Assembly: GCF_002854065.1 (NCBI RefSeq)
Contig: NZ_CP024153.1
Direction: 5' to 3' (one strand)
DNA: 64,000 nt
Source: Escherichia coli
Lineage (GTDB): Bacteria; Pseudomonadota; Gammaproteobacteria; Enterobacterales; Enterobacteriaceae
The position numbers are program-made. How positions within the stretch are numbered: the stretch's first letter is position 1; each line of letters begins with the position of its first letter. Shown one piece after another: positions 52,001 to 55,000 of this stretch.

Positions 52001-55000
52001 CCAGGCCGTGTGATTTCAGGAACGACTGCCATTCATGGCTTGTGTACTGACTGCCCTGATCCGAATGAACCAGCACCTGTTTTTGGGGATTACGCCGCCA
52101 TACAGCCATCAGCAGTGCGTTCAGGACAATGTCTTTTGTCATCCGGGACTGCATGGACCAGCCGATAATTTTGTGTGAGAACAGATCAACAACCACGGCA
52201 AGATACAGCCAGCCTTCGTGGGTCCTTATGTAGGTTATGTCCGTTACCCAACGCTCATCCGGAGCATCCGGATTGAACTGTCGCTGAAGCCTGTTGGGCG
52301 ACACGATACTGGCCTCGCCTTTACGAGCCCGCGGGCTCCGGTATCCGACCTGAGCCTTTATCCCGATACGTTTCATCAGTCGCCAGACTCTGTTCACTCC
52401 GCACTGTTGCCCGCTGTCCCGCAGATCTAAATGGATTTTGCGATAACCATAGACGCATCCCGATTCCAGCCAGAACTGTTTAATCTGTCCTGTCAGTCTC
52501 AGGTCTGCCTGATGGCGTTGTGAATGCGGCTGCTGAAGCCAGGCGTAAAAACCACTGGGATGAACATCCAGCACCCGACAGAGCAGGCGAACAGGCCAGC
52601 AACAGGTGTTTTCACGGATAAAGGCGTACCTCAGTCGGACAGCTTTGCGAAGTACGCCGCTGTAGATTCAATCTGTCAATGCAACACCCCTTTCAATTAT
52701 CTCTTTCGGTGTTTTGAACTTCAGTGTCTTTCTCGGTCTGTTGTTTAGCTGAGCAGCAACCAGATCTAGTTCATGTTGAGTATATTGGGCAAGACATGTC
52801 TTTTTAGGAAAGTACTGCCGAATTAGCCCATTTGTGTTCTCATTTGTTCCCCGCTGCCAAGGACTCTGAGGATCGCAGAAGTAAACTTTAACGCCGGTGC
52901 TGACAGTAAATTCTAGATGTCTGGCCAGTTCCATTCCTCTGTCCCATGTCAGTGATTTTCTGAGTTCTGACGGTAAACTCAGGAATTTGTCGGTAAGAGC
53001 CTGATTTACTGAGACAGAATCTTTGCCCCTGAGTCTAAGGATGATCGTATAACGTGATTTTCGGTCTACAAGTGTGGCTATATGAGAGTTTTTTGTACCT
53101 GAGACTAAATCGCCCTCCCAATGCCCCAGAGAGCGTCTGTTATCGATATTTCGGGAACGTTCGTGAATTGGTGTTCCGTTCACTATGTTAATCGTACCTC
53201 TTTCGCCTTTGCGGGTATGACGCCTGCCATGGCGAAGGCTATGCGACCGTCGCAGATGCTGTATATTCAGGTGGTGTAGCGCTTCACGGCTACGAAAGTA
53301 CAGCGTTTTATAAATTGTCTCAGGTGATATTCGCAGCGTTTTTTGACGTGGTTTTGTTCGCCTTAACCATCCTGATATTTGCTCTGGAGACCATTTCATC
53401 TCCAGCTTTTCCAGAACAAGCTTTCGCAATGGTAAATTTTGATCCAGTAAGCACGGTTTTGGCCTTTTCGCCATTCTGTTGGCTCGGTTATTAGCATCAA
53501 CAGCTTTGTAATAGCGTCTGCCCCGATTACGCTGAACTTCACGTGAGATCGTCGAAGGACTGCGATTCAGCGCAGTAGCTATCGCACGAATGCTCATTTT
53601 GGCTGACAAACCAGCTCGTATCTCCTCGCGCTCAGACAGTGTCAGGTGAGCTACAGCCCGCTTACGCTCATGGGGTTTTATGCCGCCAGTATCCCTTAAC
53701 ATAGTGAAGATCGTTCCGGGTTTTGAACCCAGGATATTCGCTATTTCACTGAAGCCTGTTCCGTTCTTCCATAGTTCAAAAACAGAGGCTTTTTCCTCTG
53801 CTGTAAATGTTCATCTCATTCAAAAAACCTCCGCAACCCCATGTTTTCACATAACTGTTGCGTTGACCAATTGAATCTACAGGGCGGATTTCCACACAGC
53901 ACCGGCGCCCGGCAAGGTGGGCCGATTTCCACACAGCACCGGTGCGCGGCAAGGTGGGCCGATTTCCACACAGCACCGGCGCCCGGCAAGGTGGGCTGAT
54001 TCCCACACGGCACCGGCGCCCGGCAAGGTGGGCGGATTTCCACACAGCACCGGCGCGCGGCAAGGTGGGCTGATTCCCACACGGCACCGGCGCCCGGTAA
54101 GGTGGGCGGATTTCCACACGGCACCGGCGCCCGGTAAGGTGGGCGGATTTCCACACAGCACCGGCGCCCGGCAAGGTGGGCTGATTCCCACACGGCACCG
54201 GCGTCCGGTAAGGTGGGCGGATTTCCACACAGCACCGGCGCGCGGCAAGGTGGGCCGATTTCCACACGGCACCGGCGCCCGGCAAGGTGGGCGGATTTCC
54301 ACACGGCACCGGCGCCCGGTAAGGTGGGCTGATTCCCACACGGCACCGGCGCCCGGCAAGGTGGGCTGATTCCCACACGGCACCGGCGCCCGGTAAGGTG
54401 GGCGGATTTCCACACAGCACCGGCGCGCGGCAAGGTGGGCTGATTCCCACACGGCACCGGCGTCCGGTAAGGTGGGCGGATTTCCACACAGCACCGGCGC
54501 GCGGCAAGGTGGGCTGATTCCCACACGGCACCGGCGCCCGGTAAGGTGGGCGGATTTCCACACGGCACCGGCGCCCGGCAAGGTGGGCTGATTCCCACAC
54601 GGCACCGGCGCCCGGCAAGGTGGGCTGATTCCCACACGGCACCGGCGCCCGGTAAGGTGGGCTGATTCCCACACAGCACCGGCGCCCGGCAAGGTGGGCT
54701 GATTCCCACACGGCACCGGCGCCCGGCAAAGTGGGCGGATTTCCACACAGCACCGGCGCCCGGTAAGGTGGGCGGATTTCCACACAGCACCGGCGCCCGG
54801 CAAGGTGGGCTGATTCCCACACGGCACCGGCGCCCGGTAAGGTGGGCGGATTTCCACACAGCACCGGCGCGCGGCAAGGTGGGCCGATTTCCACACAGCA
54901 CCGGCGCCCGGCAAGGTGGGCGGATTTCCACACAGCACCGGCGCGCGGCAAGGTGGGCCGATTCCCATATCGACATGTATGTAGCTTGTGTTATCCGTGG

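Follow-up and report, generated by a model that had tools for sequence, protein, structure and literature searches.

The array of 37-bp tandem repeats at 53882-54970 of the window (the whole 64-kb stretch of E. coli DNA analysed here, which is part of a plasmid only and to which our statements about an IncN replicon apply) is very probably the RepA-binding 'iteron I' control array of an R46/pKM101/pCU1-type IncN1 replicon, carried on an IncN backbone fragment within a mosaic F-type resistance plasmid. R46 is the IncN1 reference plasmid, and iteron I of R46/pKM101/pCU1-type plasmids is this same 37-bp repeat. The initial annotation had listed the array as unexplained; comparison with R46 and published descriptions (PMC9769515, PMC6288184, PMC9412624, PMC5027574 and PMC6052338) show that it is already described and named, as IncN1 'iteron I'. 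The relevant features of the window are listed in Table 1.

Table 1. IncN-derived features of the window and the mobile elements that border them
Feature	Position	Strand	Evidence
IS4321/IS5075-type element (IS110 family), coordinates approximate	16269..17628	+	ORF 16347-17351
IncN iteron remnant, 1.7 units of 37 bp, two RepA boxes	17629..17690	+	box scan, R46 alignment
Spacer of 48 bp, repA stop codon to first iteron unit	17691..17738	-	same layout as R46
Truncated IncN1 repA (Rep_3/RepE-type initiator)	17739..18421	-	tblastn vs R46 RepA
IS26, flanked by the IncN repA and the IncX1 origin fragment that it truncates	18422..19241	-	
IS30, right end directly abuts array	52661..53881	-	
IncN1 'iteron I' array, 29 units + 16-bp partial unit	53882..54970	-	TRF, unit parse, 29 box matches at 37-bp spacing
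Flank on the distal side, holding a CUP (conserved upstream repeat) element of the kind found in IncN1 backbones	54971..55136	+	

Tandem Repeats Finder (TRF) called the array at 53882-54967 with a period of 37, 29.4 copies, 91% matches and no indels (score 1717). An in-register parse of 53882-54970 gave 29 full 37-bp units, arranged head to tail, with 16 bp of a further unit up to 54970. The two analyses agree on the roughly 29 head-to-tail copies that had first been reported. The long array contains 13 distinct unit variants, which differ mostly at columns 5, 10, 17, 28 and 32. T-type units (n = 12) read GGGCTGATTCCCACAC, and G/C-type units (n = 17) read GGGC(G/C)GATTTCCACAC. T at column 5 was accompanied by C at column 10 in 12 of 12 units, and G or C at column 5 by T at column 10 in 17 of 17. 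Column 17 held G in 11 of the 12 T-type units and A in 13 of the 17 G/C-type units. The initial annotation had noted that variant positions co-vary, and the unit parse bears this out, with columns 5, 10 and 17 linked.

Each 37-bp unit is composed of an 18-bp RepA box, TGGRAATNNGCCCACCTT, and a 19-bp G+C-rich spacer. Columns 5 and 10, which split the units into two founder-like types, fall where the box is degenerate (R and N). The T-type unit TGGGAATCAGCCCACCTT is similar to the origin-type box TGGGAATTAGCCCACCTT, and the box variant TGGAAATCCGCCCACCTT is the commonest both in R46 and in the G-type units of the window. The array and its right flank, together 1619 bp (53882-55500), recur with 100% identity in no fewer than 18 independent plasmid records, whose hosts are E. 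coli, Salmonella, Klebsiella and Shigella. Because of this recurrence, the long array is not an assembly artefact.

We compared the window with R46, in which repA (31743-32462) is followed by a 47-bp spacer, 6.5 units of 37 bp at 32510-32749, a CUP element and, on the strand opposite to repA, resP (33148-33744). Upstream of R46 repA lie five 22-bp repeats (31553-31662) with the core TGGRAATNNGCCCACCTT, and this origin-iteron core is present in every 37-bp unit in the opposite orientation. We scanned 50 kb of R46 and the 64-kb window with TGGRAATNNGCCCACCTT, permitting up to two mismatches. R46 yielded five matches on one strand, at the origin, and seven on the other, in the downstream array, with none elsewhere in the 50 kb. 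In the window, matches were found at 17637 and 17674 on the plus strand and at 29 exact 37-bp steps from 53914 to 54950 on the minus strand; at the same threshold, no box was found outside these two iteron loci of the 64-kb window, and no origin-type boxes were present. Three other intact IncN repA loci (L006, L007 and L008) have five origin boxes each, and the first two additionally carry an inverted 37-bp array.

The consensus units of the long array and of the R46 array are the same. The IncN1 iterons of R46, pKM101 and pCU1 share with the window the 37-bp unit, the spacer of 47-48 bp after repA and a CUP element after the array. Because the unit, the repA-spacer layout and the CUP flank match R46, the large array is the 37-bp iteron array of IncN, with the flank on its distal side still attached. 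The unit had been thought to differ from the origin iterons; true IncN origin iterons contain the 18-bp core of the 37-bp unit, and the 22-bp repeats at 19312-19431, which had been assigned to this replicon as its origin iterons, are part of an IncX1 fragment that matches pOLA52. The suggestion of a protein-binding or handcuffing array, that is, a copy-control iteron array, was essentially of the right kind.

On the distal side, positions 54986-55136 are 82-92% identical to four R46 copies of CUP, one of which (32767-32983) follows the R46 array. R46 has resP after CUP; a tblastn search with R46 ResP gave no match in the window. Beyond 55136 come matches to other plasmid backbones, which IS1 interrupts; to the right of this IS1 lie a sopC remnant and sopB/sopA.

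On the proximal side, the array meets an IS30 whose transposase has a stop at codon 3. Window positions 50000-53885 are collinear with 9000-12886 of the locus (L004) from the close relative pS13D. There the same IS30 is separated from a 20.5-unit array by about 5.8 kb, made up of a hypothetical gene, rclA and an ISCro1-type element, with the start of the array. Because pS13D keeps this segment, the window carries an IS30-adjacent deletion of about 5.8 kb ending inside the array. Positions 6001-7086 of the pVE-T9_1 locus (L001) are 100% identical to the window array; the pVE-T9_1 array has 32.5 units and begins 116 bp earlier with its natural repA-side flank, spacer sequence retained, and repA itself is replaced by an IS66-family element. 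The window array is without these repA-proximal 116 bp, which amount to 3.1 units. No PLSDB record covered at least 80% of 53400-55500, the region with the IS30/array junction.

The second IncN locus lies 36 kb from the long array, where IS26, truncated repA, the spacer, 1.7 repeat units, a Tn21-type inverted repeat with IS4321/IS5075 and gshB follow one another in this order. Window positions 18423-17629 match R46 31778-32572 at 99.6% over 795 contiguous bp, which cover repA from codon 13 on, the spacer and the first 1.7 repeat units; by tblastn, residues 14-239 of R46 RepA were matched at 100% identity. The repA stop codon is at 17739-17741, and the iteron remnant begins 48 bp past it. The NCBIfam RepE model matched the Rep gene with an E value of 1.5e-37, under its equivalog cutoff. 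The gene beside the short remnant is IncN repA; because the RepE match falls below this cutoff, it is a relative of RepE rather than RepE itself. Its promoter and first 37 bp are missing, as is the origin upstream of it. The IS26 inverted repeat GGCACTGTTGCAAA begins at 18422, abutting repA, and the element (18422-19241) is a 100% match to the IS26 ends of R46. The minus-strand ORF at 17739-18467 is the repA remnant fused with IS26 sequence.

The far end of the remnant adjoins the outer GGGG end of a 38-bp inverted repeat of the Tn21-family type (GGGG on the minus strand, at 17628), within which the IS4321/IS5075-type element is inserted and beyond which lies gshB. The same junction, with three boxes, is present in PCN061p6, where the same arrangement is annotated, and pHNFP460-1 has it with five repeats according to PMC6052338. 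The placement of IS5075/IS4321 next to such a remnant is described in PMC6288184 and PMC6052338. The initial annotation is upheld on this locus: the inverted fragment is real, with two opposite-strand boxes, 1.7 units and an R46 match continuous with repA; it sits beside a Tn21-like inverted repeat and, as stated, about 50 bp (48 bp from the stop codon) past a truncated RepE-like gene; and it is related to the long array through the common 37-bp unit and RepA box.

We also considered that a transposon insertion or an inversion might have divided a single array into the short and long copies. This was rejected because in pVE-T9_1 the long array starts naturally on the repA side, and because the junction of the short remnant with the Tn21-type repeat exists independently in PCN061p6 and in published plasmids (PMC6052338). 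The two copies thus come from two separate IncN-derived segments.

Across the IS26 from the truncated repA, window positions 19242-20600 are 97.6% identical to 34708-33351 of the IncX1 plasmid pOLA52, a region between stbDE and the pir-type initiator gene. The IncX1 initiator gene was removed by the same IS26. Because this IS26 truncates both the IncN repA and the IncX1 fragment, dead IncN and IncX1 replicon fragments stand back to back across a single element.

These comparisons suggest how the array may have arisen and what it may have done. In an intact IncN1 plasmid, five 22-bp iterons are found at the origin upstream of repA, and a variable number of 37-bp units follows 47-48 bp downstream of the gene in inverted orientation. 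By analogy with F incC and P1 incA, the downstream array may bind and sequester RepA and pair with the origin iterons (handcuffing), which would set the copy number and express incompatibility. In those plasmids, the second cluster is dispensable for initiation and reduces copy number through titration and handcuffing. Papp and Iyer reportedly described RepA binding sites in pCU1 in 1995, and Krishnan and Iyer are said to have published a deletion analysis of the IncN replicon in 1990. PMC9412624 and PMC6052338 credit these two studies for RepA binding and copy-number control; RepA binding by the 37-bp units and their role in copy control rest on secondary citation together with the F/P1 analogy.

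The likeness to F and P1 lies in the combination of origin iterons, an initiator gene and a further cluster of the binding site present at the origin. The iterons of F and P1 number 5-9, are 19 bp long and are irregularly spaced, whereas the IncN unit is 37 bp long and stands in a long perfect tandem whose copy number is highly variable. In the window, IS26 took out the repA start and the origin of the IncN replicon, and the first three units of the long array were lost to the IS30-adjacent deletion. No functional IncN replicon was found in the window, that is, no repA with a promoter and no five 22-bp origin iterons. Because the window has neither an intact repA nor an IncN origin, the array regulates nothing in cis; the IncN replicon of the window is dead, and the array is a relic without a role in cis. 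Its sole plausible residual activity would be the binding of RepA supplied in trans by an incoming IncN1 plasmid.

We next analyzed how the array varies among plasmids. The sampled loci carry from 3 to about 47 boxes or units, with or without an intact repA (Table 2). The window array (29.4 units) is longer than that of R46 (6.5 units), and other IncN plasmids reach 35-36 and about 47. Copy number clearly alters through unequal recombination or slippage within the array, although the terms 'satellite DNA' and 'recombination hot spot', both offered initially, are not needed as explanations.

Table 2. RepA boxes per locus (box counts from the TGGRAATNNGCCCACCTT scan; unit counts in the text from TRF)
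Context	Locus	RepA boxes
Intact IncN	R46 (L003)	7
Intact IncN	p01A20011_C_KPC (L007)	16
Intact IncN	pMRY14-225ECO_3 (L005)	35
Intact IncN	pGMI17-001_1 (L006)	36
Intact IncN	p30COLEC-2 (L002)	about 47
Orphan array	window, short remnant	2
Orphan array	PCN061p6 (L009)	3
Orphan array	p48896_1 (L010)	9
Orphan array	pS13D (L004)	21
Orphan array	OW848810 P3 (L011)	27
Orphan array	window, long array	29
Orphan array	pVE-T9_1 (L001)	33

Among 5,426 complete E. coli genomes, an array query of ten units was found in 550 genomes (613 records), and the IncN origin with the 5' end of repA in 182 genomes (183 records), so that orphan arrays are the majority. This excess of orphans, by more than two to one, could indicate that the array is selected as a weapon in plasmid competition, namely as a replicon-free incompatibility determinant that excludes incoming IncN1 plasmids by titrating RepA. 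On this view, F-type and IncR resistance plasmids would retain orphan arrays for their roughly 20-30 RepA sites, which would be of high affinity. Orphan arrays that remain long (21-33 units) would fit such selection, and the iterons of F, P1, RK2 and R6K are known to cause incompatibility when cloned. Nevertheless, we regard this explanation as unlikely. Hitch-hiking with successful IS26/IS1-rich resistance regions accounts for the abundance equally well, short orphan arrays of 2, 3 and 9 units persist too, and 35-36 units are also found in intact IncN plasmids, so that length is not specific to orphans.

A still less probable explanation, to which we give very little weight, is that the array continues to serve a live IncN replicon in cis or in trans, either an intact one outside the window or an expressed IS26-fused repA working with an additional origin. 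The fused ORF retains 226 of the 239 RepA residues and could in principle give near-full-length RepA, and PCN061p6 annotates it as 'replication initiation protein'. Banerjee et al. reportedly announced three clustered origins in a plasmid replicon in the title of a 1992 paper, the plasmid being, it is said, pCU1 and the origins oriB, oriS and oriV; a 2003 title by Zoueva et al. reportedly names pCU1 origins including oriS. These titles are cited in, among others, PMC7826253. However, neither the repA promoter nor any of the five origin iterons is left, and a tblastn search with R46 RepA found no second repA in the window. The plasmid also has other modules, a Rep at 60503-61525 and sopAB, and PMC6052338 treats such IncN pieces as truncated remnants.

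The reading of one of the long minus-strand repetitive ORFs (363-391 aa) as a real repeat-protein gene has almost no probability: three overlapping ORFs cover the array and some automatic annotations call a hypothetical protein there, but 37 is not a multiple of 3, so any ORF cycles through three frames, the simultaneous opening of all three minus-strand frames is a property of a stop-free unit and not of selection, Pfam gave no match even at E≤10, the sole NCBIfam match scored 18.6 bits against a cutoff of 459, most listed plasmid records (in a PLSDB gene table that is incomplete) have nothing annotated there, and DNA-binding sites explain the sequence. The array is also not a CRISPR, since its units are contiguous, with 0% indels and no spacers; the initial view of a non-CRISPR, non-coding array therefore stands, with no credible domain match. 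A plasmid centromere of the sopC/parS type was rejected as well, the 43-bp sopC-type repeats forming a separate array at 57347-57553 beside sopB/sopA. At gathering thresholds, Rfam returned nothing in or near the array. The only Rfam matches were two of the attI/aminoglycoside-leader type, at about 7.7 and 10.0 kb.

Identification of the array as IncN1 'iteron I' is in line with published plasmid papers, in which the 37-bp repeat is counted at 3 to 31 copies. PMC6052338 lists the 'No. of 37-bp repeats in iteron I (IncN)' for IncN1-F33:A-:B- plasmids, with 30 and 31 among the values, and describes a 3-kb segment of truncated repA-iteron I-CUP6-resP in which IS26 cuts repA. It also describes a second IncN region, composed of truncated repA, five 37-bp repeats, gshB and an IS1294 end, into which IS5075 is inserted in some plasmids. 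Other reports give 28 tandem repeats (PMC9769515), 24.3 (PMC9412624) and five (PMC6288184), and 3-7 copies in IncN1 plasmids, where they are termed RepA-binding sites for replication regulation (PMC5027574).

The F33:A-:B-, IncHI2 and IncR hybrid plasmids (PMC6288184, PMC9769515 and PMC6052338) resemble the window in having two kinds of IncN remnant, truncated repA-iteron I-CUP6-resP and truncated repA-iterons-gshB-truncated IS1294. Shared features are the IS26-truncated repA, the gshB neighbour and the IS5075/IS4321 insertion. The repeats of the hybrids number 28-31 or 5, whereas the short remnant of the window has only 1.7 units, and the neighbours of its long array are IS30, IS1 and a sopABC module of the F type, in place of repA and resP. 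Relative to IncN1 R46, with which the remnant shares 100% RepA identity over residues 14-239, the window array stands apart from any functional repA and origin, has its proximal end cut off by IS30 and is without resP.

As a discovery the array matters little, the repeat being a described feature of IncN plasmids. IncN fragments are common in F33, IncHI2 and IncR resistance plasmids from China and elsewhere in Asia. Because its length varies (3 to about 47 units), the array can serve as a marker by which plasmid lineages are traced, and short-read assemblies easily get it wrong. Orphan initiator-binding arrays might affect which plasmids co-reside. Replicon-typing tools call 'IncN' on such remnants even though the replicon is dead. 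The plasmid pS13D was typed as 'IncN' by MOB-suite, a call that may stem from a truncated repA.

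The 37-bp array was detected in 550 of the 5,426 complete E. coli genomes searched, whereas the IncN origin together with the 5' end of repA was found in only 182 genomes of the same set. Some of the array matches, at 272 places in these genomes, were located on the chromosome. The longest array observed, at 2304-4063 of the intact-IncN plasmid p30COLEC-2, comprised 48.5 units according to TRF. Because its box spacing is irregular and 4% indels occur in a linear, incomplete record, this array may contain long-read assembly errors.

In the window, the array directly adjoins the right end of an IS30 (52661-53881). 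Codon 3 of the IS30 transposase gene has been turned into a stop by a nonsense mutation: at position 53813, the window has A where the related plasmid pS13D has G, which changes the coding-strand codon from CGA to TGA. Relative to pS13D, an adjacent deletion of approximately 5.8 kb brought the IS30 right end against the array. No match to the IS30/array junction was found in PLSDB.

On one side of IS26, the IS26 end extends the truncated repA by 16 residues and provides it with a TTG start codon in frame, and PGAP labels the resulting ORF in plasmid PCN061p6 as a replication initiation protein (predicted product). On the other side lies a fragment resembling the IncX1 plasmid pOLA52, in which the 22-bp repeats at 19312-19431 are the origin iterons; beyond them lie stbDE and IS1294. 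The pir-type initiator gene of this fragment was lost through IS26, and dead IncN and dead IncX1 pieces therefore lie on either side of a single IS26.

Window positions 62744-63589 aligned with 19467-20312 of the IncN1 plasmid R46 at 89% identity. Upstream of stbA, R46 has AGTACAACA/ATTACATCA repeats, whereas the window has ACTACAA-type repeats in the same position. The region 62744-63796 is a diverged IncN-like piece, the third of IncN type in the window, and its putative StbA-binding repeats differ from those of R46. The 43-bp repeats beside sopB and sopA are a truncated sopC-type centromere of an F-type partition module, cut on the left side by an IS3-family element.

Repeats, plasmid remnants and integron sites in the window
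Feature	Position	Details
AAC_AAD_leader/attI match	7742-7816	Rfam, 71 bits; opposite strand to 10046-10124
AAC_AAD_leader/attI match	10046-10124	Rfam, 71 bits; opposite strand to 7742-7816
IS26-repA fusion ORF	17739-18467	242 aa
IncX1 fragment (pOLA52-like)	19242-20600	97.6% identity to pOLA52
43-bp repeat	57347-57553	4.8 copies; adjoins sopB (57637-58608) and sopA (58608-59783)
ACTACAA-type repeats	63648-63796	11-bp

The two Rfam matches indicate that the window holds two attI regions of class 1 integrons, inverted relative to each other. At 9368-9447, a tandem repeat of two perfect 40-bp copies contains IS26 terminal sequence (complement of GGCACTGTTGCAAA...) and is probably an IS26 end duplicated through IS26-mediated rearrangement.
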